A stretch of DNA of 64,000 bases from an uncultured Candidatus Saccharibacteria bacterium (GCA_964437185.1 CAYTFU010000001.1:101022-165021), one strand, 5' to 3'; counted from the first letter of the stretch, positions 1,121 to 23,507 are shown. A program made the numbers and translations. Notes: generated from the letters alone by a model not told the origin.

Positions 1121-1155
1121 ATAAGGTAAGAAAGCTATGGGGAATCCGTCTGAGC
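1121..1155. repeat. 35-bp perfect direct repeat, copy 1 (taaggtaagaaagctatggggaatccgtctgagca); the same sequence recurs at 1725-1759
   Basis: Exact 35/35 match to 1725-1759. Copy 2 carries the RBS and first 7 codons (MGNPSEQ) of the ECF sigma gene. Copy 1 opens a 22-codon ORF and sits upstream of hicB. Confidence 0.9.
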
Positions 1156-1217
1156 AGTTGAAAGCTCACCCTTCGTTGTATCGTTGTAATAAAGAGGCGT
1201 CGTGATATATTTTTCTT

Positions 1218-1466
1218 ATGAAGCAGACTTCGTATACATATAGTATTGTACTCACCCCTGCTGAAGAAGGTGGTTTTACGGTGACCGTACCGTCGCTTCC
1301 GGGCTGCATCACAGAAGGCGATTCCTTTGAAGAAGCAACGGCAAACGCGCGCGAGGCGATAGAACTAACTCTCGAATGTCTAAAGGAGCAAGGAGACCCC
1401 ATCCCACACGAACTCTCCCCGTCGATCACGAGCGCGGTAACCGTTGTGCACGCGCAGTATGCGTAA
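1218..1466 (+). CDS. hicB: HicB-family antitoxin (type II TA)
   Basis: 82 aa. Typical HicB N-terminal domain: YSIVLTPAEEGGFTVTVPSLPGCITEGDSFEEATANAREAIEL. It overlaps the start of the downstream hicA. Confidence 0.8.
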   Translation: MKQTSYTYSIVLTPAEEGGFTVTVPSLPGCITEGDSFEEATANAREAIELTLECLKEQGDPIPHELSPSITSAVTVVHAQYA

Positions 1467-1662
1467 GACGATTCGAGCGAAGGAACTGATAAAAATCTTG
1501 GAGGAGAAAGGATTCGTGTTTAAACGCCAATCGGGGAGCCATGCGCATTATCGACACCAGGACGGCCGATGGACGACGGTTCCGATGCACACCAAAGAAC
1601 TCAAACGTGCTACGTTGCACTCAATCCTCAGAGAAGTTGGGCTTACACTCGACGATCTCTAA
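1459..1662 (+). CDS. hicA: HicA-family mRNA interferase toxin (type II TA)
   Basis: The sequence MRKTIRAKELIKILEEKGFVFKRQSGSHAHYRHQDGRWTTVPMHTKELKRATLHSILREVGL matches the YcfA/HicA fold signature, including GSH..Y and VP.H...L. The ATG at 1459 overlaps the hicB stop by 8 nt. The track ORF begins at 1444. Confidence 0.8.
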   Translation: MRKTIRAKELIKILEEKGFVFKRQSGSHAHYRHQDGRWTTVPMHTKELKRATLHSILREVGLTLDDL

Positions 1663-1724
1663 CCGCGTTTGTCTTGAAATCAGTCCTCTGAACTCCCTGC
1701 ATGGGTCTAAGTAAGGAGCTGTGG

Positions 1725-1759
1725 TAAGGTAAGAAAGCTATGGGGAATCCGTCTGAGCA
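1725..1759. repeat. 35-bp direct repeat, copy 2; this is the native RBS and start of the sigma gene
   Basis: Identical to 1121-1155. Confidence 0.9.
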
Positions 1760-2273
1760 AAGGGAGGGAGAGCGAGCGTTTTTGGCGGCGTATGATGAAT
1801 TTGGGGATGCGATTTTTCGTTTTTTGACGATGAAGATCGCCGATCGAGAAGTAGCGAGAGACCTCACGCAAGAGACGTTTACACGTGCGTGGGACTTTTG
1901 CGTGGAGGGCGGAGAAATTCGAGAGTGGCGACCATTCTTGTATCGCACCGCCTACAATCTCGTCGTCGATACGTATCGCAAGAAAAAAGCGGTATCGCTC
2001 GATGCGCTTGTGGACGATGAAGGATTCTCGGTGACGGACGATAGCGTAGGTGAGAAGCAAACGGTCCAACACGCCGAGATGACAAGGGTGCGCGCGGCGA
2101 TTGATGAACTCGACGACACGTACCGAGACATTATGATTCTCCGGTACGTCGATGATCTGCCTCCCAAAATGATCGCCGAAGCAACGGGACTTTCCGAAAA
2201 TGTTGTTTCTGTCAGAATCCACCGCGGAGTCGAGAAACTTCGAATACTCCTCGGCCCCAAACAACACGTATGA
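1740..2273 (+). CDS. RNA polymerase sigma-70 factor, ECF subfamily
   Basis: 177 aa. Sigma-70 region 2 (DLTQETFTRAW, FLYRTAYNLVVD) and region 4 (YRDIMILRYVDDLPPKMIAEATGLSENVVSVRIHRGVEKLR). Confidence 0.9.
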   Translation: MGNPSEQREGERAFLAAYDEFGDAIFRFLTMKIADREVARDLTQETFTRAWDFCVEGGEIREWRPFLYRTAYNLVVDTYRKKKAVSLDALVDDEGFSVTDDSVGEKQTVQHAEMTRVRAAIDELDDTYRDIMILRYVDDLPPKMIAEATGLSENVVSVRIHRGVEKLRILLGPKQHV

Positions 2274-3322
2274 AATTCAAAGAATTTTTCAATAGAAGTA
2301 CCGACCGAGATATCGCGGAGCGTATGAAACGCGCGACGAAAATTTCAATGGGCGACGCTGTGCGTGATCGCATGCGTGCGCACCTTTCGGAATACACCAA
2401 AATGCGCCCGATCCGCGAAACGCGCGGCGCTCAGGCGCGAATTAATGGCTCATTCACTGCATTTTTTGCTCACATCCGCCCGATGCCCATCGTGGCCGCT
2501 CTTCTCATCATCTCAATCGGCAGCAGCACGGTGAGCGCCGAATCTTCTCTTCCTGGCGATCTCCTCTATCCAATAAAGGTGCACATAAATGAAGGGATAC
2601 GCTCTGCGATCACGCGGACTCCGGAAGCGCGCATTGAATGGGCCGTCGCGCGCGCGGAGCGCCGTCTCGAAGAGGCCGCTATTCTCGAACTCGTCGGCAA
2701 CCTCAGTGAAGCCACGCGCGCGGAGCTCGAAACCAACCTCGATGCGTACGAACAGTACGCACAGGAATCAGGTCAGGGGTACGCAGGGACAGGTGCACTT
2801 CCAGAGTTGGCGGAGAGCGTCGGAGCGATACGCATCGCGCGCCGCAACATCCTCGGCACGCTTGCCGAGGGGCGCAGAGCTGCCCATGTCACTCAGGCTG
2901 CGCAAGCAGAATCAGTAGGCGACGCGTCTACAGCAAACTTTACGATGGAAGCGCCCGAGGCGAGCATCATGAGCGCAAAGGCAGCTGCACCGATCCCCGA
3001 AGCTGCTCCCGCCCTCATGGCCGAAGCTATGGCGACCGATATCGACGATGAGGAGGGGCCCGAAGTCCGAGCGCGAGGGAATCGCACAGCCGCCAAAGTG
3101 CGTATTGGAGCAGCCGAGCGCTTCCTCGAAAAACAGAAAAATCTTGATGAGGGAACGCGGCAAGAAGCGCGCGAACTCCTCCAAGTCGCCCGCGAAAAGT
3201 TTGAGGAAGCCGACGAGAAGTCATCGCATGGCAAGCGCGAAGATGCAACGCGCGAATTTGAGCAGGCGCTCGAAAGCGCGATGCGAGTCGGTGCTGCCCT
3301 TTCTGAAGTGCGCGGAGAGTAG
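2270..3322 (+). CDS. putative anti-sigma factor or membrane protein cotranscribed with the ECF sigma
   Basis: ATGA overlap with the sigma stop. Single TM helix (PIVAALLIISIGSSTV), then a long coiled-coil/acidic extracytoplasmic region. The location fits a typical sigma/anti-sigma pair. Confidence 0.45.
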   Translation: MKFKEFFNRSTDRDIAERMKRATKISMGDAVRDRMRAHLSEYTKMRPIRETRGAQARINGSFTAFFAHIRPMPIVAALLIISIGSSTVSAESSLPGDLLYPIKVHINEGIRSAITRTPEARIEWAVARAERRLEEAAILELVGNLSEATRAELETNLDAYEQYAQESGQGYAGTGALPELAESVGAIRIARRNILGTLAEGRRAAHVTQAAQAESVGDASTANFTMEAPEASIMSAKAAAPIPEAAPALMAEAMATDIDDEEGPEVRARGNRTAAKVRIGAAERFLEKQKNLDEGTRQEARELLQVAREKFEEADEKSSHGKREDATREFEQALESAMRVGAALSEVRGE

Positions 3323-3328
3323 ACGCGC

Positions 3329-3997
3329 GTGGCGCAAACGAGTACACTGTCGCTCATGAATACAAAATCACACATGCGAACTACTAATGACGTCGGTACT
3401 GGCTCCCTCGGCGCTCGGGCGCAAATGTTGGTTCCCATGGTTATTGAAAAAACCTCCGCCGGCGAGCGCGCGTATGATATTTATTCGCGACTCCTCAAAG
3501 AGCGTATCGTTTTTTTGGGAGGACCGATTGACAGCGATGTTGCCAATCTCGTCGTCGCGCAATTTCTCTTTCTCGCGTCCGAAGACCCGAAAAAAGATAT
3601 CTCCTTCTACATCAACTCCCCTGGCGGTCACGTCTCAGCGGGCCTCGCCATCCTCGATACGATGAACCACATTCAGCCCAACGTCTCAACCGTCTGCGTC
3701 GGCATGGCGGCATCCATGGCCGCGATACTCCTCTCGGCAGGAGAAAAGGGCAAGCGCTTCGTACTCCCCAACGCAGAAGTCATGATCCACCAGCCGAGCG
3801 GAGGCGCCGAAGGCCAAGCGACCGATATCGACATCACGGCGAAGCAGATTCTCAAGCTCCGCGAGCGTCTCAATAGGATCCTTGCCAAAAATACGGGTCA
3901 AAAGCTTGAAAAAATCGCCACCGATGTAGAGCGTGATTTCTTCATGAGCGCCGACGAATCCGTCAAATACGGGGTGGTGGATAAGGTCTTGCACTAA
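3329..3997 (+). CDS. clpP: ATP-dependent Clp protease proteolytic subunit
   Basis: [30 protein letters not shown]...YINSPGG...MIHQPSGG: catalytic Ser/His context. The track ORF starts at GTG 3329. In-frame ATGs at 3356, 3374 and 3425 are alternative starts, with MLVPMVIE at 3425. Confidence 0.9.
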
Positions 3998-4197
3998 GGA
4001 TCAGGTCGCAGGGCTCCAAAACCACGAAAGTGGCCAACGGTACATTTCGTGCTATATTGGCGAAGTACCAATTAGCATGTGTATGAAATTCAATTTCGTT
4101 TTCGGTGAGACGCGTGTGATGCCTCTAGAACTTATTCATGATTTCAGTTTCGAAGTCAGTCTGATGCGCACATAAACTCACGCGGAAACATCCGCGT

Positions 4198-5727
4198 ATG
4201 TCATTAAAAACCATATTATTCCTTCTTGGCCTCGCAGGCCTCGTAGGCATTGCAATCGGATATTACCTCCGACTTATTATTTCGTTGGGAAAGCGCGGCT
4301 CGATGGAGCTCGAGATCCGCAAGATGATGCTCGACGCCGAAGAGCGCGCAAAAAAGATCGCTGAGGATGCTGATCGCGGGGCGAAGACCACGCTCGAACA
4401 CGCGACAGACGGGCTCAAAGAGCGCGAGAGAGATCTGAAGCAAACGGAAGAGCGCCTCGTTCGTAAAGAGGAACTGCTCGACAAGCGACAAACCAATCTC
4501 GACACTGAGCAAGAATCGCTCTCCAAAAAGGGTGAGGAATTGCTTGCTGCCAAGTCAAAAATCGAAGAAACTGCCCGCGCCCAGCAAGAAAAACTCGAGA
4601 AAATAGCCGGACTCACGACGGAAGAAGCCAAATCAGACCTCATAAAATCCGTAGAAAAACAGTACGAAAAAGACATAGAGAGCCGCATGCGCAAGCTTGA
4701 AATTTCCGGCAACGACCAACTCGAACATCGCGCAAAAGAGATACTCACGACGTCGGTTCACCGCCTCGGCAATTCGGTCGTTTCCGACGTTCTTGCGACC
4801 ACGATCTCTCTCCCTAATGAGGAAATTAAGGGCAAAATCATAGGTAAAGAGGGTCGCAACATTCGCGCCTTTGAGCGGGCAACGGGAGTCGACGTGATCG
4901 TTGACGATACGCCTGGCACTATTACGCTCTCCTCTTACGATCCGATTCGCAGGCAGATCGCTCGCATCGCGCTCGAAAATCTCATTCTCGACGGCCGTAT
5001 TCAACCGGCAAAGATCGAGGAGTCTGTTCAGAAAGCGGAGCAGGAGATCAACAACATCATCAAAAAGAAGGGCACCGAGGCTGCCTTTGAGGCGCGGGTC
5101 GCCAACCTCGATCCGAAGCTCCTCATGATCCTCGGCCGACTCTACTTCCGCTCAAGCTACGGCCAAAATGTGCTCGATCACTCCGTGGAAGTCGCGCATC
5201 TCGCGGGCATGCTCGCCGCAGAGCTTGGCGCGAATGAAGCGACCGCTCGCGCAGGCGCCCTCTTCCACGACATCGGCAAAGCCGTAGACCATGAAGTCCC
5301 GGGTACGCACGTGGAGATCGGACGACGCATATTGCAGAAATTCGGCGTCGGCGAAGATGTCGTGAAAGCGATGCAAGCGCACCACGAGGAATACCCTTAC
5401 GAAACCCCTGAGTCGATGATCGTACAGGTCGCCGACGCGATTTCTGGAGCTCGACCGGGCGCTCGTCGCGATTCTGTGGAGAATTACATCAAACGCCTTA
5501 CCGAACTCGAGGCGATTGCAAATGGAAATCCGGGCGTCGAAAAGAGTTATGCAATCGCTGCCGGCCGCGAAGTACGCGTCATCGTGAAGCCTACAGAGAT
5601 CACCGACCTTGAAGCGCGCAAGCTCGCTCGCGACATCGCCGACAAGATCGAAAAGGATATGCAATACCCCGGAGAAATTAAAATCTCTGTCATTCGCGAG
5701 ACTCGCGTCATCGAATACGCCAGATAA
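4198..5727 (+). CDS. rny: ribonuclease Y
   Basis: 509 aa. N-terminal TM anchor, coiled coil, KH domain (KIIGKEGRNIRAFERATGVDVIVDD) and HD domain (LFHDIGKAVDHE...HHEE). Confidence 0.9.
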   Translation: MSLKTILFLLGLAGLVGIAIGYYLRLIISLGKRGSMELEIRKMMLDAEERAKKIAEDADRGAKTTLEHATDGLKERERDLKQTEERLVRKEELLDKRQTNLDTEQESLSKKGEELLAAKSKIEETARAQQEKLEKIAGLTTEEAKSDLIKSVEKQYEKDIESRMRKLEISGNDQLEHRAKEILTTSVHRLGNSVVSDVLATTISLPNEEIKGKIIGKEGRNIRAFERATGVDVIVDDTPGTITLSSYDPIRRQIARIALENLILDGRIQPAKIEESVQKAEQEINNIIKKKGTEAAFEARVANLDPKLLMILGRLYFRSSYGQNVLDHSVEVAHLAGMLAAELGANEATARAGALFHDIGKAVDHEVPGTHVEIGRRILQKFGVGEDVVKAMQAHHEEYPYETPESMIVQVADAISGARPGARRDSVENYIKRLTELEAIANGNPGVEKSYAIAAGREVRVIVKPTEITDLEARKLARDIADKIEKDMQYPGEIKISVIRETRVIEYAR

Positions 5728-5937
5728 TGGCTCTATAGAGCGACATAATAGCGAGTGCTGCTTGTCCCCCGCCATCCACAGAAAACTGTGGATATTAGGG
5801 GTGTGTCAATTGACATCCCCAAAATACGGCTCAAAATGGTCGTAGGGGTGGCTTGCATGACCTGATCATGCGCCGCCAGTCCGAGATACTGTCTCGGACA
5901 AGAGTCGAGTGCGCATTTAATAAATAAGTAAAATCGC

Positions 5938-6213
5938 ATGGCAAATAAAATGGATTTGGTTGAGAAGGTCGCCGCCACAATCGGTTGCACAAAAGCCGAC
6001 GGCGAGCGAGCGGTCGAGGCGATTATCGCCACGATCACAGAGTGCCTCAAGCGAGGCGACGAGGTGTCGGTAGCGGGCTTGGGAATCTTCCAGGCAAAGA
6101 CACGTGCAGGTCGCACGGGTCGAAATCCGCGAACTGGTGCGACGATTCAGATCAAGGCAATGAAGGTGCCGAAGTTCCGCGCCTCCAAGACCTTGAAAGA
6201 CGCGATCAAATAG
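5938..6213 (+). CDS. hup: HU-family DNA-binding protein
   Basis: 91 aa. MNKMDLVEKVA...VAGLGIFQAKTRAGRTGRNPRTGATIQIKAMKVPKFRASKTLKDA. Confidence 0.9.
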   Translation: MANKMDLVEKVAATIGCTKADGERAVEAIIATITECLKRGDEVSVAGLGIFQAKTRAGRTGRNPRTGATIQIKAMKVPKFRASKTLKDAIK

Positions 6214-6229
6214 GATCTCCCCTATTCAC

Positions 6230-6263
6230 AAAAGCCGGCGCTACGCGCCGGCTTTTGTGTTTT
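6230..6263 (+). terminator. rho-independent terminator after hup
   Basis: gccggcgc-tac-gcgccggc: 8-bp GC stem, 3-nt loop, followed by ttttgtgtttt. Confidence 0.75.
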
Positions 6264-6338
6264 ATGTGCGGGATGGGAGAATCGGACTCCCATTTCGAGT
6301 TTGGAAAACTCGCGTGTTACCATTACACCAATCCCGCA

Positions 6339-7016
6339 TTAAGGCGCGCCTAACACTAGGTCTGACCAAGCAAGTATTTTCCGTGCCAAGAACACACCGA
6401 ACCTCTTCTCGCCTAAACCATTGACAGAAAGATGTACTGTCCCGTGTGGGAGTTTGCCCGACTTAAGGGCTTTTTTGTCTTTTCGCCAATCAACGACTGT
6501 CTTTTGAAATTGGCTCATCGGAATGGTAGTCTTTTCCGACCAAAACTGCAAACTTTGTTCCTCGTCACTATCGGGATATATATGTAGTCGTATTTTCAAA
6601 TTATCCTTTCTGAGTCCCACAGCCTTTATAAACCATTTGATCATAAAATTTATTATCGCTGGATTCGAGTTCACAAACCTGATTTGCTGCGTCGACTTCG
6701 CACCCTCCCCTATATACAATCCGAGTCCGAGCATGAAAAGGTCACGGCGAGAAAAGGCACTGATATCCGTTTTTGCTTCTGATCGCGCACGTTGAAACGA
6801 TTCCCTCTTCAGTCTACTCTTTGCCTCACCCGAAGCAGCCCGAGCCTTTCCAATACGCTCGACCGTTTCGTCGTTGGGGGTATACGGGATGTCGGCTAGC
6901 CAAACTGCTAATGTGCCCTTTGATACTCTCGCCACCTTCGCAATGTAATTATACGAATGTCCCGCCTTTCGTAACTCGATTGCACTTATTCGCGCATGCA
7001 CTTTAGTCACCTCCAT
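6339..7016 (-). CDS. putative free-standing LAGLIDADG-like homing endonuclease with N-terminal HTH
   Basis: 225 aa. N-terminal HTH (LRKAGHSYNYIAKVARVSKGTLAVWL). LAGLIDADG-like block LFMLGLGLYIGEGAK followed by ...IINFMIKWF.... Locus GC is about 45 % against about 58 % in the flanks. No homing-endonuclease target rRNA or intron is nearby. Confidence 0.4.
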   Translation of the reverse strand: MEVTKVHARISAIELRKAGHSYNYIAKVARVSKGTLAVWLADIPYTPNDETVERIGKARAASGEAKSRLKRESFQRARSEAKTDISAFSRRDLFMLGLGLYIGEGAKSTQQIRFVNSNPAIINFMIKWFIKAVGLRKDNLKIRLHIYPDSDEEQSLQFWSEKTTIPMSQFQKTVVDWRKDKKALKSGKLPHGTVHLSVNGLGEKRFGVFLARKILAWSDLVLGAP

Positions 7017-7113
7017 ATTATATAGTAGCAGTGCTTACAAACAAAGGTTCGATATCCACACAGTACGTGAGCGAGTCCTTGAGTCCGGGGCAGATGCGCC
7101 GTACATTGACTCG

Positions 7114-8184: not shown

Positions 8185-8286
8185 ATTGAAAATCCGACCG
8201 TATCGTACCTCTGCGGAAATTGACAAAAAAAATCGCCCCCCTATAGTTCGTCGGGCTGAACAACTTGCTGGAAAGGAACCTTCCAA

Positions 8287-9135
8287 ATGCTCTTTACATA
8301 TACCGTAATCGTCACAATACTTTTGTCGGTGAGCGTACACGAACTTGGTCACGCCTACGCCATGCGTCAATGTGGGGTACGCATCGCAAAGATCGGATTG
8401 CTCGGAATCCCAGGATTGGGTACATTCCGTCTCCCAATAAGATCTCGCTTCTTTCTCGGGACTCATTGGTACGTGCACCCACTGCTCATCGGCGCATATG
8501 TCGAACCGAACACGGACGACATGGAAAAGTTAGTGCGGAAAGATGCGCTCTACGTCTACGGGATGGGACCATTAGCGAATGTTCTGTTTTCGCTCGTGGT
8601 TATGTTTGCTCTTGGGACGATGACCCTCACATTCGACGTTGCGGTGTTTGCTCCCGAAACCATTCAAAAGTGGGGTGCACCCGGCTTACTCATTGCACTG
8701 GGAATTGTCGTCGCAGCGACATGGTACTTTAGGCGGATACTGTGCCAACTTATGCTGCTACCCGTTGGTTGGCTTCTTGCGATCTTCATCGCATACTTGA
8801 CTTGGAAAAGTGGTCCGCAGATTTCGGGCATTAGCGACATCATTGGCGATATCCATCGCGCCCGGCCTGTAATGATGAAAGCCCTGCCCGCATCGGCACT
8901 CAACGAAATCACAATGGCCGTGAAGCTCGGCGCAGGATTTTCAGTCTTGCTTGGACTGGTAAACCTCCTACCTCTCGTACCACTCGATGGTGGGCACATG
9001 ACACGCCACCTCTTTCCATCGAGATGGCAGAGTGCGTATGAATACGCCTCCACGCCAATCTTCGCACTCCTGATGTTGCTTCAATTTGGCAAAGACGCGC
9101 TCAACTTGGGGCACTGGCTGTGGAGCCTGCTCTAG
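8287..9135 (+). CDS. site-2 protease family (M50) membrane metalloprotease
   Basis: HELGHA zinc motif in TM1. NLLPLVPLDGGHM motif. Multi-TM. Confidence 0.8.
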   Translation: MLFTYTVIVTILLSVSVHELGHAYAMRQCGVRIAKIGLLGIPGLGTFRLPIRSRFFLGTHWYVHPLLIGAYVEPNTDDMEKLVRKDALYVYGMGPLANVLFSLVVMFALGTMTLTFDVAVFAPETIQKWGAPGLLIALGIVVAATWYFRRILCQLMLLPVGWLLAIFIAYLTWKSGPQISGISDIIGDIHRARPVMMKALPASALNEITMAVKLGAGFSVLLGLVNLLPLVPLDGGHMTRHLFPSRWQSAYEYASTPIFALLMLLQFGKDALNLGHWLWSLL

Positions 9136-11292: not shown

Positions 11293-11436
11293 CTACTTCG
11301 CTCTCGAGCGTAACTCGAGAGCTTCGAAGTGCACAGCACGACCCTTTTCCAGCTGTGAACATTGATGTATCGTGGCGAAGTAGCCCTTCGAAGTTCTTAT
11401 GAGCGTTAGCGAAACAAGAACGAAGTAGGGCATCGC

Positions 11437-11673
11437 ATGCACTACGTATATATTCTTCGGGATTCTGTTGGCCAGCTGTATGTCGGATACTCTGACAACT
11501 TGAAAAAAAGACTGCAGTATCATCTGAGGGGAGATGTTAAGACGACGCAAAAGTATCAGGGTGCAAAACTCATATGGTACTGTGCCTTCGCAAACAAAAA
11601 GAAAGCTCTCTATTTTGAAAGATACTTAAAAGCAGGTTCCGGACATGCCTTTGCGAGAAAACACCTTGTATAA
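11437..11673 (+). CDS. GIY-YIG nuclease family protein (UPF0213/YhbQ-like)
   Basis: 78 aa. VYILRDSVGQLYVGYSDNLKKRLQYH is the GIY-YIG core. Confidence 0.8.
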   Translation: MHYVYILRDSVGQLYVGYSDNLKKRLQYHLRGDVKTTQKYQGAKLIWYCAFANKKKALYFERYLKAGSGHAFARKHLV

Positions 11674-11724
11674 AGCCTTATCGTATCAGGACCTATCCAC
11701 AGGGAGAACCGCTTGACCTTAACC

Positions 11725-11749
11725 ATGTGCTCCCGCCAGGATTCGAACC
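11725..11749. repeat. 25-bp direct repeat of the tRNA-Arg 3' half (T-arm plus acceptor); att-like
   Basis: tgtgctcccgccaggattcgaacct is identical at 11725-11749 and 11876-11900, the latter inside the tRNA-Arg gene. Confidence 0.85.
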
Positions 11750-11877
11750 TTACAGGTTCAGTACACCTTTGCGGTTTTCTCACAGCTCCGCCGCTCGCAA
11801 ACATCGCAAAGGTCTTCGAATCACTGGTCGCACGCAAAGCAGTTTGCGTGCTCGGGAGCACACATGCTTCGCTTGTG

Positions 11878-14723: not shown

Positions 14724-15659
14724 CTACTTCCTTCGTTTCCCGTGGAACGCCTGATGTACCGACCGAAGGTGCTTGTCGGTGACGTGCGTGTAGACTTGCG
14801 TTGTCGCAATGTTGGCGTGACCCAAGAGCGCCTGCACACTTCGAAGATCCGCGCCATTTTCCAGAAGGTCGGTCGCGAAGCTGTGACGAATTACATGGGG
14901 AGTCACCTTGCGGGTGATGCCAGCCTTGATTGCATACTGTTTCACAAGCCGCTCGACTGATCGAGGTGTAATCCGGTGCAGATCTTGATTGCCACCTTTC
15001 TTGCCCTGCGAAGCTTTGGCGAAGGAGGGGCCGTACGACACAAAGAGCGCGTCGCTCATGTCGCCGCGTTTCTTAATATACGCCGCGACGGCAGCCTTCG
15101 CAGAAGGGGAGAGGAAGACGACACGCACCTTCTCACCCTTACCCCGGACAGAAAACTCATCTCGCGATAGGTCTAAGTCGTGATTCAGACCGCACAGCTC
15201 AGAGACACGGAGGCCCGTGGAGAAGAAAAGCTCAAGAATTGCGCGATCACGCAGGGCTGGGAGCTCCTCACCCTGCGGCGCCTTCAGTATCCTGTTTAAC
15301 TCATCGGCAGTAATGAGGTCGAGATCTCGTCCTCCTACTTTGGCGAGCTCTATGCGCTCAGGGTTCAAAGACTCTATGTCTCGCTTGCGCAAGAATTTGA
15401 GAAACGCGCGCAATGCGATGAGGTGGTAATTCTGCGTATTTTTCTTCATTGTGCCCGACACACCGCCCGATCTATTGAGCGTAATGCGAAACTCCCGGAC
15501 CTTCTGCTCGGTAATCTGAGTAGGGGAGCTCACCTTTGCAAAGTTCAAAAATCGCATGAGGTACCGATCGTAATTCTCAACCGTCTTCACCCCGCGCCCT
15601 TTCTCAATCTCAATGTATTCCAAAAATTGCGTCTTGAGCGACTTCAAATCTGCAGCCAT
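14724..15659 (-). CDS. tyrosine site-specific recombinase, XerC/XerD family
   Basis: N-terminal SAM-like domain. C-terminal catalytic R...HVIRHSFAT...LLGH...TQVYTHV. Confidence 0.85.
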   Translation of the reverse strand: MAADLKSLKTQFLEYIEIEKGRGVKTVENYDRYLMRFLNFAKVSSPTQITEQKVREFRITLNRSGGVSGTMKKNTQNYHLIALRAFLKFLRKRDIESLNPERIELAKVGGRDLDLITADELNRILKAPQGEELPALRDRAILELFFSTGLRVSELCGLNHDLDLSRDEFSVRGKGEKVRVVFLSPSAKAAVAAYIKKRGDMSDALFVSYGPSFAKASQGKKGGNQDLHRITPRSVERLVKQYAIKAGITRKVTPHVIRHSFATDLLENGADLRSVQALLGHANIATTQVYTHVTDKHLRSVHQAFHGKRRK

Positions 15660-17304: not shown

Positions 17305-17386
17305 ACGCCCATTCTACGCCCAACCGTACTTTATACACACACCCCTCATCTTGCGCATCTGTTTTTTTGCGATATCGTGTCGATAT

Positions 17387-17914
17387 ATGAATATACAAAC
17401 TATCATTATTGGTATCGTCGTTATTATTGTTATCGCTGTTGGTGGGTACGGAATTTATAGTTCTAAGTCTGCTCCTGCCGCTCCGGCAGATGCCCCCACG
17501 GACCAAGCAGCTAATACCCAGCCCGCAGCGGGCGGCGCAGATCAGGTACAAGGTCAGGATGTGAAGGTCGGTACGGGCCGAGAAGCAAAGCCGGGTGACA
17601 CCGTTTCGGTGCTCTACGTCGGTAAATTCTCCGATGGCACCGTTTTCGACAGCTCAGCAGCACATGGCGGCGAGCCGCTCACGTTTGTCTTGGGTTCAAA
17701 TGGCCTCATCCCTGGCTTCCAGGTAGGCATCAACACCATGAAGGAAGGCGGTCAGAGACTGCTCTCGATCCCACCGTCTCTCGGATATGGAGCTGAGGAC
17801 GTCAAAGATCCCTCCGGTAAGGTGATCATACCTGCAAATTCGACCCTTATTTTCGAAATCGAGCTTGTGAAGGTCGCCGACACTCCGGCAGCACCCGCCT
17901 CAGAGACACCGTAA
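17387..17914 (+). CDS. FKBP-type peptidyl-prolyl cis-trans isomerase with N-terminal membrane anchor
   Basis: ATG at 17387 (MNIQTIIIGIVV...). FKBP domain VSVLYVGKFSDGTVFDSS...LTFVLGSNGLIPGFQVGINTMKEGG...IPPSLGYG...IPANSTLIFEIELV. Confidence 0.85.
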   Translation: MNIQTIIIGIVVIIVIAVGGYGIYSSKSAPAAPADAPTDQAANTQPAAGGADQVQGQDVKVGTGREAKPGDTVSVLYVGKFSDGTVFDSSAAHGGEPLTFVLGSNGLIPGFQVGINTMKEGGQRLLSIPPSLGYGAEDVKDPSGKVIIPANSTLIFEIELVKVADTPAAPASETP

Positions 17915-17936
17915 TCCGTCGCTCTAAACATGGGCC

Positions 17937-17985
17937 CCAAAGGGTGGCAAACCGCCCTTGGGGCCCTTTGTATTTGCATAATCGG
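17937..17985 (+). terminator. hairpin terminator after the FKBP gene
   Basis: gggcccca...tggggccc stem followed by tttgtatttg. Confidence 0.6.
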
Positions 17986-18008
17986 CTCAAATGTGATACT
18001 GTTGTTCA

Positions 18009-18275
18009 ATGCTTACGAAGCGAAAGAAGGCCAATGAGATCACTAAGTCGCGCCGCCACGACACCGATACGGGGTCTCCGGAGGTACAGGTGACGCTCCT
18101 GACGCGCCGAATTGAGGAGCTTTCTGCTCATTTGGACAAGAATCGCAAGGACAAACACGGCCGACGAGGTCTTTTGGGGCTCGTTGCCGACCGCCGCAAG
18201 CATTTGAAGTACTTGGAAGCCAACAATAAGCGCTCGTACGGTACTTTGATCAAAAAGCTGGGTCTCAAGAAGTAA
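18009..18275 (+). CDS. rpsO: 30S ribosomal protein S15
   Basis: 88 aa. GSPEVQVTLLTRRIEELSAHL...HGRRGLLGLVADRRKHLKYL. Confidence 0.95.
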   Translation: MLTKRKKANEITKSRRHDTDTGSPEVQVTLLTRRIEELSAHLDKNRKDKHGRRGLLGLVADRRKHLKYLEANNKRSYGTLIKKLGLKK

Positions 18276-18400
18276 TACTCGGGCGATCCGCTCGGTTTGT
18301 GGTTATTTCTTCCAAGTGAGTGTGGTATATTCTGTGTAGAGAATATTTTTATATGATTTTCACTAGCGGCTACACCCCCTAGTGACTAAGAACTTATTGT

Positions 18401-19036
18401 ATGGCTATCATCAAGCATCAAGAACAGCGTGTCGGCGTATTCGTCGACACACAAAATCTTTACCATAGCGCGAAAAACCTCTATCATGCGCGCGTCAATT
18501 TCGGCAACGTCCTTAAGGATTCCGTCGGCGATCGACGCCTCATTCGCGCGCGCGCATACCTCGTAACCACCGAGACAGGTGAGGAAAAAGCTTTTCTCGA
18601 AGCGCTCACGAAAATGGGCATCGAACCAAAGACCAAAGATCTCCAGATATTTTACGGGGGAGCGAAGAAGGCCGACTGGGATGTCGGCATGGCGGTCGAC
18701 GCGATTACCGCCTCTACCAAGCTCGATACGGTCATTCTCTTTACGGGAGACGGCGACTTCGTGCCCCTTGTCGAATACTTAAAGATTCACGCAGGCTGCC
18801 AAGTGGAAGTGGTCTCGTTTGGACGCTCCACTTCGGGCAAATTGCGCGAGGCGACCGATCACTTCCTCGACCTCGACGAAGATCCGCGCCGCTACCTCAT
18901 CAACTACCGAGGCCCCACGCGGCCCCGAGGTCGCGCACCACGCGGAAGCGCCGATATTCGAGTCTCCGCACCCGACGATTCAATCGCGCCCGACGACGAA
19001 GCAGGAGAGGTGGGCCGCATCACCGGCGTAGAGTAA
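18401..19036 (+). CDS. NYN-domain (LabA-like PIN) protein with Arg/Gly-rich tail
   Basis: VGVFVDTQNLYHSAKN...DWDVGMAVDAI...VILFTGDGDFVPLVEYL. Confidence 0.65.
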   Translation: MAIIKHQEQRVGVFVDTQNLYHSAKNLYHARVNFGNVLKDSVGDRRLIRARAYLVTTETGEEKAFLEALTKMGIEPKTKDLQIFYGGAKKADWDVGMAVDAITASTKLDTVILFTGDGDFVPLVEYLKIHAGCQVEVVSFGRSTSGKLREATDHFLDLDEDPRRYLINYRGPTRPRGRAPRGSADIRVSAPDDSIAPDDEAGEVGRITGVE

Positions 19037-19045
19037 CGCGGGAGG

Positions 19046-19267
19046 CTACCGCGCGTTCCTCAACACAAATGCGAGTACCGCCATCAGCGCGGCCGCGAGA
19101 AACGCGCACGCCACAAGACCGAAACCGCCAAGAAATGTGAATTCTTTGTTCACGCTCCACCGTACGTACGCTTCCGCAAACGTAAGTGCAAAAAAAGCGA
19201 TGATGGAAAAGGCAGACGAGCCTGCGGCCAGCCAAAAGACGAACGCTTCACGGTACTCTTTTTTCAT
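19046..19267 (-). CDS. small hypothetical membrane protein
   Basis: Two hydrophobic helices. Start at MKKEYREAFVFW. The track ORF extends to 19339. Confidence 0.35.
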   Translation of the reverse strand: MKKEYREAFVFWLAAGSSAFSIIAFFALTFAEAYVRWSVNKEFTFLGGFGLVACAFLAAALMAVLAFVLRNAR

Positions 19268-19283
19268 AGATAACGATACTGTA

Positions 19284-20282
19284 TCACGCCGCGGCACCCT
19301 CAGGCGCGCGCATTTTGCGGCGTGAGGAAAAATAGGCAAACGTAATAAATACGAGACCGATAAGCCCCGTGATCACCTCCGGCACGTGGATGAAAATCCC
19401 CACGAGCATCGCGAGTGCGAGCCCAAGAATGGCCCAATGTGCACCGTGTTCGAGGTAGGGGAGCGCGTCGAGCGTCTTTGCGCGAACGAGATAGACGGTA
19501 AAGGCTCGCACGAAAAGCGCGCCGATCCCCAAGCCGGCGATAATGACCGGCAGCGCGGAAGTAACCGCGAAGGCGCCGACAACGCCATCGAGCGAGAACG
19601 CTGAGTCGAGCACGTTGAGATAGATAAAGAGGGCCGCCCCAGCACTCGCCGCGTGTTCGCCAGCCTGCACCTCAAACGATTGGGCAATACCCTCGATCAC
19701 GATGAAGAGCACGACACCGATAAGGCCGGCGATGAGGAGAGTTGCCGCTTCGTGCGGCACGGCAAATGCGCACCCAAGGAGAATGACGAGCACGAGAGCG
19801 ATTTCGATTGCCTCGATGCCGCCCCACCGTGAGAGGTAGCGCTCCACAATATCGATCCAGTGCACTGTCTTTTTTTCATTAAAGAAATATTTGAGCGATA
19901 CGAGCAGCAAGAACGCGCTACCAAACGCGCCGATTGCAACGTGCGCATCTGCAAGCCGGTGGCCATACTCGGCAGCGTCAAAGAAGGCAAGCTGAGTTAC
20001 GAAGATAGGGGAAAGGCCGGCCGCGGCCGCGACGATAAAGATGGGAAGAACGAAACGCGTGCCAAACACCGCGACTGGGATGCCCCACACGAGGAAGCGC
20101 TTCTGCCAGAGCGGGTCCATGCGCTGGAGCACCTTCGCATTTACAACGGCGTTGTCGAAAGAGAGGGTGGTTTCCAAAATCGCCAGTAGCACTACCAGAA
20201 GCAGCGCCGTAAGCCCTCCCCAGGAGAACGCCCCCGCAAACGCGACGATGGATACGATGGCCGGAAAAATGAATACGCGCAT
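19284..20282 (-). CDS. TerC/DUF475-family integral membrane protein
   Basis: LSFDNAVVNA and FSLDGVVGAFAVT motifs. Multi-TM. Confidence 0.8.
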   Translation of the reverse strand: MRVFIFPAIVSIVAFAGAFSWGGLTALLLVVLLAILETTLSFDNAVVNAKVLQRMDPLWQKRFLVWGIPVAVFGTRFVLPIFIVAAAAGLSPIFVTQLAFFDAAEYGHRLADAHVAIGAFGSAFLLLVSLKYFFNEKKTVHWIDIVERYLSRWGGIEAIEIALVLVILLGCAFAVPHEAATLLIAGLIGVVLFIVIEGIAQSFEVQAGEHAASAGAALFIYLNVLDSAFSLDGVVGAFAVTSALPVIIAGLGIGALFVRAFTVYLVRAKTLDALPYLEHGAHWAILGLALAMLVGIFIHVPEVITGLIGLVFITFAYFSSRRKMRAPEGAAA

Positions 20283-20305
20283 AACAATGCGGGTATCCTA
20301 CCACA
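20228..20305. repeat. 78-bp direct repeat, copy 1: the native start and upstream region of the TerC-family gene
   Basis: About 92 % identical to 21536-21613. Includes the minus-strand ATG of the TerC gene at 20280-20282 and its first 18 codons. Confidence 0.9.
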
Positions 20306-20416
20306 ATTTGGTTTATGAGTGCCCAAATGAGATACGCCTAGATTGGCGGGCACCGAGGGACCGGGACCGAGCGGAGACAGACTCCATGCCTGCCATTGAA
20401 AGAGGCGAAGAAAATC

Positions 20417-21469
20417 CTATTCAACTAGGGTGATACTTCTAACAAACTGATTCGCAGCTTGTTTTTGAGAATCAGTCATGTAGGACATATCAATCATCAC
20501 ATCTGACTCGCTGTCACCGTTAGAGTCAATAAATAACACTGCGAACGGCCTGCCATTTAATTTCTCCCAGTTTCCATACCCGTCTCCCTCATTCCAGTCG
20601 TATGTGTCGTATATTCTTAAAACCCTAGCCTGGCCAGCAATTTCCACAGCCGAGGAAGAAATCTCAGCAATGGGAACTCCCGCATTCCATTCCCCAAAAT
20701 AAGCATCTGCGGATATATCGATGGTACCGTCACCATAGAAGATTTGTATATGCTCTGGTTCAAATGTTGATCGTGGCGGGTGGGGCCAGTCAAGTATCTT
20801 TACAATACTCACAGCATTCTCAGGTGGAATAAAACTTATACCTGCTTTTTCAAAAATAAACTTTTGATTTTTTGAAAAACGCTGAATGCTCTCTTTGTTT
20901 GCATCCTCAAAAGCAAAAGCGTCACTTATACCTAAAATCTCAGATGTGTTATTCTTTTCCCTTACTTTGGCAACAAAGAAGTATTTACTCTTTGTATCTA
21001 ACTCACATTCAAGTGCGGGCACGACGTACTTAACTTCCTCGAAAGCCACAACATTTGAAGCGACCTTACACTCAGAATCCTCGCTATTTAAATAAAGGTC
21101 AAAGACGCTGATGTTCGTATCCCTGCTTAGTGACCATCTAACAGGGAATGCAAGGTTCCGACTGAGGCGAGTATCTCCGTTCGGGTCGATAAAAACCAGA
21201 GGAGATACTGCTTTCTTTTCATTTTCCGGTGTTGGTGTATCAAGTGCTGCAAAGCCTTCCGTTCTTGCGTCAGATTCAACTTTAACTACTGAAATTCTCT
21301 CCACCCTAACAAAATTCTCAGGGGCAAATGAATACCAAACCCACCCACCAATAAGCGACAAAGTCACAAAAAGCGCCATCGCTAAATACTTTGGAGGCGG
21401 AGTTGCGGTGCCTCCAACACTTGCTGGTCTCTCGAGTGAGACTGACTCTCGAGCTTGCTCAGGCTCCAT
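20417..21469 (-). CDS. hypothetical secreted/membrane-anchored protein in a low-GC insert
   Basis: ATG at 21469 (MEPEQARES...). The track ORF starts at TTG 21490. Signal-anchor ALFVTLSLIGGWVWYSF. About 42 % GC against about 58 % in the flanks. No family recognised. Confidence 0.55.
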   Translation of the reverse strand: MEPEQARESVSLERPASVGGTATPPPKYLAMALFVTLSLIGGWVWYSFAPENFVRVERISVVKVESDARTEGFAALDTPTPENEKKAVSPLVFIDPNGDTRLSRNLAFPVRWSLSRDTNISVFDLYLNSEDSECKVASNVVAFEEVKYVVPALECELDTKSKYFFVAKVREKNNTSEILGISDAFAFEDANKESIQRFSKNQKFIFEKAGISFIPPENAVSIVKILDWPHPPRSTFEPEHIQIFYGDGTIDISADAYFGEWNAGVPIAEISSSAVEIAGQARVLRIYDTYDWNEGDGYGNWEKLNGRPFAVLFIDSNGDSESDVMIDMSYMTDSQKQAANQFVRSITLVE

Positions 21470-21535
21470 CGAATTTATGATACCACGCAAAGTTGAAGTT
21501 CGAAGGCGCTGTAGTCAGACCCCGCGGACCAAAGC

Positions 21536-21613
21536 ACGCCCCCGCAAACGCGACGATGGATACAATGGTCGGAAAAATAAATACCGGCATAACAATGCGG
21601 GTATCCTACCACA
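21536..21613. repeat. 78-bp direct repeat, copy 2, upstream of the inserted low-GC gene
   Basis: Carries a duplicated TerC start (MPVFIFPTIVSIVAFAGA...) that opens a roughly 43-codon leader ORF. Its TGA lies 8 nt past the ATG of the insert gene. Confidence 0.9.
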
Positions 21614-21682
21614 CCAAGGTGATCCCTTGACGCGCCACGAGCCTTTGTTATAATCTCGTTATAACATAACCGATCTACCTGT

Positions 21683-21925
21683 ATGTCACAAAAAGTGATC
21701 CGAATAGGTTCTTCAGCCGGGCTTACGATTTCTCCAGATATATTGGAGGCTCTCGGCATCCAGATAGGGGACGCTGTTGAGGTCTCGGCACACAGATCTG
21801 CACGAACACTCACGGTGAGACCCAAAGAAGAAACTGGAGAACAGGTGAATCCCGATGTAGTCGTGTGGACGAATGCATTCATCGACAAAAACCGAAAGCT
21901 TCTGATGCGACTTGCTGACAAGTAG
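21683..21925 (+). CDS. AbrB/MazE/SpoVT-fold antitoxin (Phd-like partner of Doc)
   Basis: 80 aa. Swapped-hairpin signature IRIGSSAGLTISPDILEALGIQIGDAVEV. Immediately upstream of the doc gene. Confidence 0.7.
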   Translation: MSQKVIRIGSSAGLTISPDILEALGIQIGDAVEVSAHRSARTLTVRPKEETGEQVNPDVVVWTNAFIDKNRKLLMRLADK

Positions 21926-21926
21926 C

Positions 21927-22325
21927 ATGAATTATCTTTCGGCAGCTGACATACTTGCTATCCACGACCGCGTTATCGAGGAGACGGGCGGCATGTTGGG
22001 TGTGCGCGAAGAAAACCTATTGCAATCTATCGCGCAACGCCCCAAGACCTCATTAGGGGGCATTGAACAATTTCCAGATATTTTCACGAAAGCAGCAGTG
22101 TACCTCGAATCCATCGCGACCTATCATGTCTTTCTCGACGGCAATAAACGCACCGCACTTTCCGCGGCGGCCGTGTTTCTGCGTCTAAATGAATATGAGA
22201 TGACACTTCCAATCACAGCGACGGAAGAATTCATGGTGGCAGCAGCGCAGAGGAAGTATTCACTCGAGCAAATCGCCGCCTGGCTCAAAACCCACTCAAA
22301 GCGAATTGCGAAAGGTAAATCCTGA
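21927..22325 (+). CDS. doc: death-on-curing (Doc/Fic-family) toxin
   Basis: Fic motif HVFLDGNKRTALSAA. ATG 1 nt after the antitoxin stop. The track ORF starts at TTG 21912. Confidence 0.85.
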   Translation: MNYLSAADILAIHDRVIEETGGMLGVREENLLQSIAQRPKTSLGGIEQFPDIFTKAAVYLESIATYHVFLDGNKRTALSAAAVFLRLNEYEMTLPITATEEFMVAAAQRKYSLEQIAAWLKTHSKRIAKGKS

Positions 22326-22353
22326 CGCAAGAACATTGCGACACACTTTTCCC

Positions 22354-22376
22354 ATTCCCGTGGGGTCAGACCCCAT
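22354..22376. repeat. palindromic 23-mer attcccgTGGGGTCaGACCCCAt, copy 1, with an extra GACCCCATGTC half-site repeat downstream
   Basis: Perfect 7-bp inverted arms around a single nt. The second copy is at 23371-23393. cagaccccatgtc is directly repeated at 22367-22379 and 22388-22400. Confidence 0.85.
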
Positions 22377-22678
22377 GTCCACATGTCCAGACCCCATGTC
22401 TCTCAACCAACGAATAAAACAGGACGCCATCTCTCTTGTTGAGCCGTCATTGCACAGTCCGCTGAAGGTAGAGGGGTTCTTTCGACACAAAATATTCCCC
22501 GACCTAGTCTTCCATACAAAGGCACACCCCTAACTTCACGCCATCGGCTAAAGTTAGTGGTGCATGTTTCTTGCGACCTCATCTCCCGTGGGATTTTACC
22601 CCGTGATCGTGCCATATTGACACACGATTCAATTGGGTGTTTATTCCTCGGAGAGCAACTTTTGAGGAGGACTTTGAC

Positions 22679-23218
22679 ATGCCTACGAACTGGACAATCG
22701 CTGACACTGCGAAGCTGAATGGATTTGATGCGGCCGCGTTCTGGGAGTGGCTGCGGACGGGATTGCGTGATTGGGACATCGACGAGTTACGGTGGCAAGC
22801 TTTTGCGCCCGTTGTGTACCGATTCGATCCATTCGACGATCCCGAAGATAGCATTGCAAGAATGTTTGAGGCACTTTCAGAAGACCGGCAAAGTGTCTTT
22901 TGTGAGGCACTTGCGTTCGGATTTTCTGCAGCAAACATCACCCCGGAAGCATTCGACTTTTTGCAGAACATTCTGGTTCTGCTGAAAAGGTCGGAGCCCG
23001 TGGAGGCAATGGTCGCCCGTCTGTGCGAATCCAACTACCTCGACGCAACTTCACATGAGGTTGCCGATCAATTGTTTGCAAGAGTATTCGCCGTGGAGGC
23101 GCTCTACACGCATCCGCGGTGGGAAGCGCTCTATGCTCGCCTTAAGGCGTCATCATACTTCAGGGAGACATACCGACCACGAATCGAAGAACGGATCGCA
23201 GCGGCTCAGCAGCGATGA
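22679..23218 (+). CDS. hypothetical protein (orphan)
   Basis: Strong SD GAGGAGG 8 nt upstream of the ATG at 22679. Acidic, Trp-rich, no known motif. Confidence 0.5.
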   Translation: MPTNWTIADTAKLNGFDAAAFWEWLRTGLRDWDIDELRWQAFAPVVYRFDPFDDPEDSIARMFEALSEDRQSVFCEALAFGFSAANITPEAFDFLQNILVLLKRSEPVEAMVARLCESNYLDATSHEVADQLFARVFAVEALYTHPRWEALYARLKASSYFRETYRPRIEERIAAAQQR

Positions 23219-23273
23219 TTCTGGCTACCCGCGGCATGAAATGTGCCGCGGGACATCTACTTCATTTCGATGG

Positions 23274-23340
23274 AAAAGATAGCGCAGCAATGCAATCGTG
23301 GTATTGTGCCCACATTAAAGGCGGCCCGAGGATAGGTAGT
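23274..23340. repeat. degenerate tandem repeat A upstream of pnp, containing an extended -10-like CGTGGTATTGTGC
   Basis: Shares aagatagcg, aatcgtggtat(t/a)gtgcc, catta and ggatagg(t/c)agt with repeat B at 23432-23507. Confidence 0.6.
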
Positions 23341-23370
23341 TCTCAAACTCGGTTTGAGACCTAAAATCCG

Positions 23371-23393
23371 ATTCCCGTGGGGTCTGACCCCAT
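23371..23393. repeat. palindromic 23-mer attcccgTGGGGTCtGACCCCAt, copy 2
   Basis: 22/23 identical to copy 1. Preceded by the hairpin tctcaaac-tcg-gtttgaga at 23339-23360. Confidence 0.85.
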
Positions 23394-23431
23394 TGACCCG
23401 ATCCGGAAGGGTAGCCCTTACCTTCGGACGC

Positions 23432-23507
23432 GAGAAAGATAGCGTGTGCTAGAAATCGTGGTATAGTGCCTGCATTAGTAAATAGTTGTGGCGGGCGGAT
23501 AGGCAGT
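23432..23507. promoter_or_regulatory. repeat B: likely pnp promoter/leader with extended -10 CGTGGTATAGTGC
   Basis: TGgTATAGT matches the extended -10 consensus TGnTATAAT. It lies about 90 bp upstream of the pnp start. Confidence 0.5.

Follow-up and report, generated by a model that had tools for sequence, protein, structure and literature searches.

Long duplications of neighbouring gene ends flank small accessory cassettes in a Candidate Phyla Radiation bacterium and its relatives

Insertion with long target duplication is said to have been described by Nobusato et al. in 2000 (Gene 259:99). Its marks are repeats longer than 30 bp, an insert of less than 20 kb, the absence of a transposase or integrase and an empty site in a relative (Furuta, Abe and Kobayashi 2010, PMC2853133). 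Published cases have been reported mostly in naturally competent species, the authors suspected DNA breakage, and restriction-modification cargo was a screening criterion of that study (PMC2853133). A later paper widens the term to 'other DNAs' (PMC3457768).

Several other systems come close. Integrases duplicate attachment sites at gene ends, and the duplicated end keeps the target gene intact. Rhs and CDI orphan modules undergo sequential displacement of toxin tips. In the T6SS arrays of V. cholerae, cassettes arrive beside a conserved gene by recombination and leave fragments of gene ends and of old cassettes (PMC5361080). Homology-facilitated illegitimate recombination, described in Acinetobacter, S. 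pneumoniae and P. stutzeri, integrates foreign DNA through a homologous anchor on one side and an illegitimate joint on the other, without the enzymes of mobile elements (PMC3240628). Merodiploids generated by transformation carry duplications that arise through alternative pairing (PMC3784515).

The DNA compared with these systems here is a 64-kb stretch (the window) from a Candidatus Kaiserbacteria genome, a Candidate Phyla Radiation (CPR) bacterium. A first-pass annotation had proposed that accessory genes are inserted at three loci beside core genes, each with a duplicated copy of the neighbour's promoter and 5' coding end. The relative used for comparison is a co-occurring genome, contig k141_767014, with loci L218 and L225. 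At the first locus, a hicBA pair lies beside an ECF sigma gene:

1119 to 1156, plus strand: upstream copy of the sigma start region; aligns to single-copy sequence in L225 (4981-5021)
1137 to 1205, plus strand: chimeric ORF of 22 codons (MGNPSEQ from the sigma gene, then insert)
1157 to 1721, plus strand: hicBA insert, 565 bp
1218 to 1466, plus strand: hicB (Pfam HicB_lk_antitox, 8.6e-14)
1459 to 1662, plus strand: hicA (Pfam HicA_toxin, 1.8e-20)
1722 to 1759, plus strand: downstream copy, running into the intact ECF sigma gene (1740-2273)

The direct repeat is 38 nt long and 97% identical, with 35 nt exact; its copies are 603 bp apart with hicB and hicA between them, and the second copy spans the sigma gene ATG (1740). 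The upstream copy holds an extended -10-like motif (TGATAAGGT), AAGAAAGCT, an ATG and 17 nt of coding sequence. The chimeric ORF that it begins is in frame with hicB and stops 12 nt short of the hicB ATG. The two adjacent cassette genes form a type II HicAB toxin-antitoxin module and overlap by 8 nt. A promoter scan places a promoter-like site before hicB at 1184-1211 (TTGTAA, a 16-nt spacer, TATATT, and an upstream TG). L085, L086, L088 and L225 have no such cassette in front of the sigma gene, and in L225 the single segment 4981-5021 aligns to both 1117-1157 and 1722-1762 of the window, which makes it the empty site.

The second locus has an orphan gene beside terC/DUF475, a core gene syntenic with pnp in relatives:

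19284 to 20282, minus strand: terC/DUF475 (Pfam DUF475, 4e-95)
20225 to 20305, minus strand: D1, the copy on functional terC (positions -23 to +58); aligns to single-copy R218 6965-7007
20306 to 21532, minus strand: insert of 1,227 bp with the orphan gene
20417 to 21469, minus strand: orphan gene, 350 aa, with one predicted transmembrane helix (residues 27-48)
21533 to 21613, minus strand: D2, the decaying upstream copy

Here the repeat is 81 nt long and 93% identical, with its copies 1308 bp apart. D1 spans the terC ATG (20282, minus strand) and 23 nt upstream of it; D2 begins a chimeric ORF of 43 codons (21459-21590) that overlaps the orphan gene ATG by 11 nt. The insert is missing from L218, where one segment (R218 6965-7007) aligns to both D1 and D2. 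With L218 as outgroup, five of the six differences between the copies fall on the D2 branch, and four of those five change an amino acid. The idea that D2 is a functional donor allele is unsupported, its changes being mostly non-synonymous; its residues P2 and C19 are absent from the N-termini of the 15 closest relatives examined (homologues 71-84% identical). [quoted passage not shown] The orphan gene has no match in Pfam or PADLOC and no homologue among 5.8 billion proteins, so that the search for a donor came back empty, and the AlphaFold2 model of its product (pLDDT 36) is too poor for a fold search.

At both loci the inserts are accessory, and comparison with the empty sites bears out the proposal that the flanking repeats are duplicated native start regions of the neighbouring gene. 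In the window, only loci 1 and 2 show local direct repeats that reach 35 nt, and each has two copies only. Chance cannot produce exact matches of this length in 64 kb. ENA and Logan contigs of several samples (L001-L004, L090-L097) show the same layouts at 99.6-100% identity. Exact-protein searches with sigma, hicB, the orphan gene and pnp retrieved only contigs that carried the inserts, with no insert-free variant among them; the look-up of terC gave zero records. Clean excision by way of the repeats, also suggested in the annotation, is plausible and would leave an empty allele, of which this population showed none. Contig ends show mosaic haplotypes, and several related strains co-occur in the samples. 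A test for enrichment of local direct repeats in CPR DNA was negative, the density being about 25 per Mb compared with about 24 per Mb in non-CPR loci in a small and biased sample. Elsewhere in the window, a 25-nt duplicate of the 3' end of tRNA-Arg (11726-11750) resembles an old attachment-site scar.

Both repeats start at an extended -10-like motif (TGnTAnnnT) that is kept in relatives, and run from this element of the core gene to 20 nt (locus 1) or 58 nt (locus 2) into the coding sequence. A scan with the sigma-70 consensus calls zero promoters inside either repeat. That the repeats bear a promoter is an inference from the motif. Capture of a promoter for expression of the cargo is not needed, since hicB has its own promoter-like site and the orphan gene, by the author's reading, its own extended -10-like motif.

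The third locus, in the spacer between terC and pnp, is of a different kind:

21514 to 21523, plus strand: partial third copy of palindrome X, GTCAGACCCC, at the junction of D2 and the orphan-gene insert
21627 to 22325, plus strand: phd-like/doc module (promoter-like site 21627-21654, antitoxin 21683-21925, Doc 21927-22325)
22342 to 23434, plus strand: segment of 1,093 bp with X1, orphan179, copy A and X2, delimited by empty-site comparison with L218
22679 to 23218, plus strand: orphan179, with remote homologues
23268 to 23372, plus strand: copy A, a foreign truncated pnp promoter-leader (nhmmer and leader comparison)
23425 to 23555, plus strand: copy B, the native pnp promoter and stem-loop leader, running into pnp (23556-25733)

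The phd-like/doc module is common to the window and L218, is missing in L005, L006 and L008, and is an older insertion. The 1,093-bp segment stands in place of about 50 nt of the relative's doc-pnp spacer and is absent from the relative. Tandem repeats A and B in front of pnp had been put forward as a third instance of the pattern. Two promoter-leader copies do exist (A, 23268-23372; B, 23425-23537), but their identity is just 52% overall (51% in the leader), they enclose no accessory gene, and both stop short of the pnp start codon. Leader A is 73% identical to the leader of L008, compared with 51% to neighbouring B; L218 has a B-type leader only, nearly identical to copy B. Copy A is part of the inserted segment and not a target duplicate. 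Locus 3 is thus an insertion or replacement with a heterologous pnp promoter-leader and terminal palindromic repeats, and the three loci do not form one signature. A third, degenerate copy of the pnp leader upstream of orphan179 gave a signal in pairwise alignment and was unsupported by nhmmer. PADLOC gave zero defence-system matches for orphan179, and Rfam found tRNAs only, with nothing credible in 20200-23700.

The terC-pnp spacer varies among relatives. It is 155-231 bp in L005, L006 and L008, holds a different ORF in L007 and L221-224, and holds phd-doc alone in L218, where the 3' end of the L007-type ORF survives as a remnant. There is evidence that this spacer is a probable hotspot with cassette turnover.

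The palindrome GGGGTCWGACCCC has two copies in the 1,093-bp segment, X1 (22350-22376) and X2 (23367-23393). With the partial copy these are the motif's only three sites in the window, all within accessory DNA. X1 and X2 were rejected as a target duplication because the relative's empty site has no X. The palindrome is also found on more than 120 unrelated metagenome contigs. A link to a mobility gene was sought by clustering the ORFs within 2 kb of 121 motif sites, and no recurrent family emerged; a literature search for the sequence returned chance matches only.

Long gene-end duplications recur in the lineage. For example, L225 carries a different hicBA (HicB 45% identical) between 92-nt duplicates of the RNase Y 3' end, and the window provides the empty site. 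These copies are 74% identical, with a longest identical run of about 11 nt; 17 of their 24 differing sites are third codon positions (P = 1.9e-4), and 4 of 30 residues are changed. Because the divergence is biased to synonymous sites, both copies evolved as working gene ends. L086, another Kaiserbacteria contig, has two nested toxin-antitoxin cassettes in the order DR1, cassette, DR1-DR2, cassette, DR1''-DR2', and there the duplicated stretch is a convergent intergenic region. These cases show that the pattern concerns gene ends and intergenic DNA and not promoters specifically, and targeting of promoter-proximal regions falls as a general rule. The outer edges of the three gene-end duplications are at position -18, position -23 and the stop codon.

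[quoted passage not shown] The duplications are 38 and 81 nt, the inserts 565 and 1,227 bp, empty sites exist, and both repeats fall on sequence that is single-copy, uniqueness being judged within the 64-kb window. Pfam finds HicA and HicB or nothing in the inserts. As in the published set, the repeats are locus-specific, transposase and integrase are absent, GC may deviate, overlap with gene ends is frequent and the mechanism is unknown. The published examples are from Proteobacteria, Thermus, cyanobacteria and Actinobacteria, whereas the host here is a CPR bacterium. The cargo (hicBA or the orphan gene at these loci, toxin-antitoxin pairs and orphan genes more widely) differs from that of the published work, which dealt with restriction-modification genes. 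Two of the present duplications, unlike the published ones, span a promoter-like element and a start codon, and one related case (L225) has diverged copies, implying a donor allele.

The other systems match in part. Homology-facilitated illegitimate recombination shares its single homologous anchor and illegitimate joint with the scheme favoured below, although its classical products are insertion-deletions and not short gene-end duplications. Two finds here, the duplicated RNase Y 3' end of L225 and the remnant ORF in the spacer of L218, resemble what displacement of T6SS tips leaves behind; T6SS and toxin-tip systems, however, swap parts of one toxin family, whereas here unrelated cassettes arrive beside housekeeping genes.

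The most likely account, to which we give about half of our confidence, is that cassettes were acquired by imprecise recombination from related genomes bearing them next to the same core gene. The incoming DNA, probably taken up by the cell, would pair homologously within the core gene at one end and form an illegitimate joint at a non-allelic position with the other, so that the stretch between the join points would be present twice. Selection in a very compact genome may then keep those products in which the flanking genes are intact. At loci 1 and 2 the copy attached to the core gene preserves that gene with its own start signals, and the other decays and opens a short chimeric ORF immediately ahead of the cassette. 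Locus 3 would be a cassette replacement in the same traffic, bringing along the donor's pnp promoter-leader. The synonymous bias of the RNase Y copies and the resemblance of leader A to L008 rather than to B are indirect sequence evidence for a diverged donor. A related donor with the orphan gene beside terC is hypothetical, since this gene has no homologue. Homologous replacement of the downstream flank at a later time could likewise account for the RNase Y result, and no clear microhomology is seen at the junctions. For one-sided homologous recombination to yield a duplication and not a deletion, the ends must be joined unequally, for example across sister duplexes; such joining is documented in transformation-induced merodiploids (PMC3784515) and not for these cassettes.

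A lesser but genuine possibility is insertion in one step, in which foreign DNA is captured at a staggered double-strand break with nicks 38-92 nt apart or by a replication template switch, with fill-in duplicating the stretch between the nicks. The copies would be identical at birth, and the non-functional one would drift later. For loci 1 and 2, where the duplicates are 93-100% identical (97% and 93% over the full repeats), this is the most parsimonious reading, and it counts against recombinational acquisition in being equally good and simpler. The concentration of amino-acid changes on non-functional D2 is what it predicts, an orphan gene with no donor context suits it, and DNA breakage was the suspicion of the original authors (PMC2853133). 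It needs a second event for the excess of synonymous differences in the RNase Y copies, leaves the heterologous A and B leaders unexplained, and fails to explain why one edge of each of the three gene-end duplications lies exactly at the outer edge of a gene unit.

Campbell-type integration, in which a circle with the cassette and one gene-end segment enters by a single homologous crossover in that segment, is unlikely. Its product has exactly the repeat-insert-repeat topology, and the flanking repeats would permit the cassette to leave as a circle and to enter relatives with the same gene end. Homology of just 38-92 nt, however, which in L225 is 74% identical with so short an identical run, makes a poor substrate for homologous recombination; the assemblies contained neither a circular form nor an empty allele, and a first event creating the linkage would still be required.

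Far less probable is a site-specific system: an integrase in trans, an integron-like system, or a non-autonomous transposon with long duplications (IS1634/IS1630 type). The tRNA-Arg duplicate speaks for it, as do the long, variable duplications made by some Mycoplasma insertion sequences (cited in PMC2853133). Integrase attachment sites come with an integrase and a fixed core site, absent at loci 1-3, and the duplicated sequences at different loci are unrelated native gene ends that vary by locus, unlike the attC sites between cassettes of integron arrays. No transposase or integrase lies in or beside the inserts, the duplications (38-92 nt, variable) are far longer than transposon target-site duplications, and reading of the junction sequences revealed no terminal inverted repeats at the insert ends. 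The sole tyrosine recombinase in the annotated 1-26 kb is a conserved Xer-like gene (14724-15659), syntenic in relatives. Assembly artefact or chance similarity, which a metagenome-assembled genome with co-occurring strains might invite, is scarcely credible, with identical structures in more than eight contigs from different samples and assemblers and with 35 exact nt and 81 nt at 93% far beyond chance.

After 25 years of cataloguing, insertion with long target duplication still lacks a mechanism. Within about 35 kb of shared synteny, two co-occurring uncultured genomes differ by three such events; two more, nested, lie in a third genome. The pattern is thereby extended to a phylum with tiny, gene-dense genomes and to toxin-antitoxin and orphan cargo. 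Samples that contain both empty and filled sites, together with one diverged duplicate pair, are natural material for telling break-repair from recombination models. A doubtful extension is that Kaiserbacteria, and perhaps CPR bacteria generally, have a dedicated, recombinase-free exchange of small cassettes, with a housekeeping gene's duplicated end as a portable homology arm and the GGGGTCWGACCCC palindrome as a hotspot of breakage or recombination. Through such an arm, if this is true, toxin-antitoxin and orphan cassettes would gain access to related genomes, have immediate expression and be able to depart cleanly. The insertions show how tiny, gene-dense genomes can accept new genes without breaking their neighbours.

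Two direct repeats in the window (GC fraction 0.531) bracket accessory genes and carry the start of the neighbouring core gene. The window's protein matches, with the locus titles, assign it to Candidatus Kaiserbacteria (Parcubacteria, Candidate Phyla Radiation, CPR). Repeat searches of the window detected a 38-nt repeat (1119-1156 and 1722-1759, 97% identity, 35 nt exact) and an 81-nt repeat (20225-20305 and 21533-21613, 93% identity). The genes associated with them are the following.

1218-1466, hicB, between the 38-nt copies
1459-1662, hicA, between the 38-nt copies
1740-2273, ECF sigma gene, its ATG within the downstream 38-nt copy; a DUF5667 gene is next
20417-21469, minus strand, orphan gene, between the 81-nt copies

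The 81-nt copy at 20225-20305 consists of the first 58 nt of terC/DUF475 and 23 nt upstream. Both layouts recur, at 99.6-100% identity, in contigs of several samples in ENA and Logan, and are therefore not assembly artefacts. The first-pass annotation had described one duplication pattern at three loci; it holds for these two, where both repeats are matched by empty sites in relatives, and fails at the doc-pnp spacer, which contains an imported donor leader. The interpretation built on it is right in part.

Neither insert is present in more distant relatives: terC and pnp are divergent neighbours with only 155-231 bp between them in L005, L006 and L008, and three other comparison loci (L085, L086, L088) have the sigma gene without an upstream hicBA. 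The key comparator, contig k141_767014, comes from the same series of samples and belongs to a related genome whose TerC is 83% identical. Its locus L218 has the order pnp, doc, phd, a 93-nt spacer and terC, and its locus L225 the order trigger factor, a 69-nt spacer and sigma. A single segment of this relative (R218 6965-7007) aligns to both 81-nt copies, and a single segment of L225 (4981-5021) to both 38-nt copies. Because one segment in the relative matches both copies, the arrival of each insert, 1,227 bp with the orphan gene and 565 bp with hicBA, was accompanied by a duplication of the target. The phd-doc pair, common to both genomes, is older.

The terC copies have diverged unequally. 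Taking L218 as the outgroup places five of the six differences on the non-functional copy, and four of those five alter an amino acid (R2P, A8T, F19C). Residues P2 and C19 occur in none of the N-termini of the 15 closest relatives examined, which are homologues with 71-84% identity to the query. By these comparisons the non-functional copy is decaying, and the hicBA duplication, with one difference, is younger than that of terC.

At the start of both repeats stands a motif resembling an extended -10 element (TGGTAGGAT at terC, TGGTAAGGT or TGATAAGGT at sigma), and relatives keep it at the same distance to the ATG. L218 matches the window in all 23 nt upstream of terC, L005 to L008 carry TGCTACGAT, and the sigma start in L225 has TGCTAAAGT and then the same nine bases up to the ATG. 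A consensus promoter scan made no call at the -10-like sites of the repeats, since a -35 match is missing; we infer that the repeats would function as promoters. The upstream 38-nt copy opens a chimeric ORF of 22 codons that ends 12 nt before hicB, and the upstream 81-nt copy one of 43 codons with an 11-nt overlap with the ATG of the orphan gene. Each cassette seems to have its own start signals: the promoter scan placed a promoter-like site before hicB (1184-1211), and by our reading TGGTATCAT precedes the orphan gene. The orphan protein (350 aa) has one predicted transmembrane helix, and no homologue of it was found.

The third locus lies upstream of pnp, where the native element is as follows.

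23425-23555, native pnp promoter-leader, with counterparts upstream of pnp in L005-L008 and L218

The leader, about 80-180 nt in length, is conserved and forms a long stem-loop in which compensatory changes separate the relatives; a conserved promoter, AAAGATAGCG ... TGGTATAGT, precedes it. No Rfam family matches the leader, which may serve autoregulation of pnp in Kaiserbacteria, the host lineage. The window contains exactly two promoter-leader copies. Copy B hardly differs from the one copy that L218 has; copy A is cut off within the basal stem, and its leader is 73% identical to that of L008 and 51% to B. A 1,093-bp segment (22342-23434) carrying copy A, the gene orphan179 (22679-23218) and two 27-nt repeats, X1 and X2, takes the place of some 50 nt in the spacer of the relative. 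The L218 spacer instead keeps the last codons of an ORF found at this site in L007. Since A is of another type, the segment is a replacement and the relative retains an ORF remnant, this locus is one of cassette turnover with import of a donor's pnp promoter-leader, not of target duplication. About 20 remote homologues of orphan179 were found, most of which make up the N-terminal half of a hypothetical protein some 330 aa long; one is in a three-gene operon in a context that is not CPR-like. Neither orphan protein has a match in Pfam or PADLOC.

Within the window a perfect 13-nt palindrome, GGGGTCWGACCCC, occurs at module junctions and nowhere outside the accessory DNA that separates terC from pnp.

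21514-21523, partial palindrome site
22350-22376, palindrome site
22584-22605, degenerate copy
23367-23393, palindrome site

Exact matches to a 19-nt form, CCGTGGGGTCWGACCCCAT, are found in >120 JGI metagenome contigs with GC from 40% to 73% and unrelated flanks, where the motif is often a nested palindrome (GGGGTCAGACCCGTGGGGTCTGACCCC) or stands in arrays or inverted pairs. No gene family was associated with it in these contigs and no literature record was found. The element looks REP-like, though it is spread over very different genomes.

The signature is not limited to the window. L225 has a different hicBA after RNase Y (HicB 45% identical to the window's), flanked on either side by the final 92 nt of RNase Y, in both cases down to the stop codon; for this insert the window provides the empty site. 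Downstream of the DUF5667 gene in L086 there is a nested arrangement: DR1, RelB and a 305-aa gene, DR1-DR2, PIN-VapB, DR1''-DR2'. It reads as two successive toxin-antitoxin cassette insertions, which duplicated 71 nt and about 140 nt. These two cases make the signature a recurrent one in the lineage, and the idea that it targets promoters is too narrow, since gene 3' ends and intergenic DNA are affected as well. The raw density of local repeats in CPR loci is not above that in other bacteria.

Other irregularities were observed in the window and its relatives. At 11294-11876, 583 nt separate tRNA-Gly(gcc) and tRNA-Arg(tcg), which in L007 are convergent and 12 nt apart. This interval contains a GIY-YIG nuclease gene (78 aa, 11437-11673, Pfam 1.5e-16) and, at 11726-11750, a 25-nt stretch that repeats the tRNA-Arg 3' end exactly and lies 150 nt away from the genuine end. 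The L005 counterpart (18311-20488) of a Xer-like tyrosine recombinase (window 14724-15659) is split by an intein-like insertion resembling a homing endonuclease, with an ORF of 725 aa versus 311. The Parcubacteria contig L010 (12086-14140) has a 57-69-nt repeat five times at a spacing of 300-760 bp, which may be a small cassette array. In L021 (1424-1719 and 2966-3048) the 5' and 3' parts of a tRNA-Thr sequence, about 225 nt between them, are repeated at a distance of 1.3-1.5 kb on the upstream side of the intact gene; they could be a second copy that holds an intron or is disrupted. A gene of 295 aa (29959-30846; L090 10056-10943) matches the CD_NTase_C domain; it follows a ComM-like gene and has small unannotated genes around it, in what may be a defence-related accessory region.

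The RNase Y copies in L225 have 17 of 24 differences at third codon positions (P = 1.9e-4), with 4 of 30 residues changed; this bias and the other lineage type of leader A point to recombination with diverged relatives. Because of these two features, the favoured explanation, held at about even confidence, is that cassettes would be acquired imprecisely from related genomes, with one end homologous and the other illegitimate, and that selection for intact neighbours would follow. For the hicBA and orphan-gene loci, a one-step staggered-break or template-switch event is a strong rival, if a less likely one. Ordinary transposition and site-specific integration are excluded, because no transposase or integrase is in or beside the inserts and the duplicated sequences differ between loci and are unrelated to each other.

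Clustered third-position SNPs were also detected at contig ends from sister samples. The ends of L090 (window 19904-20055, 6.6% divergence) and L002 (window 5259-5376, about 17%) have dense SNPs, nearly all third-position, and pass directly into window-identical sequence. They reflect either several coexisting, related haplotypes joined as mosaics or chimeric contig ends.

[quoted passage not shown] The pattern conforms to the published criteria for such insertion, and the phenomenon is a fresh instance of this known, unexplained kind.
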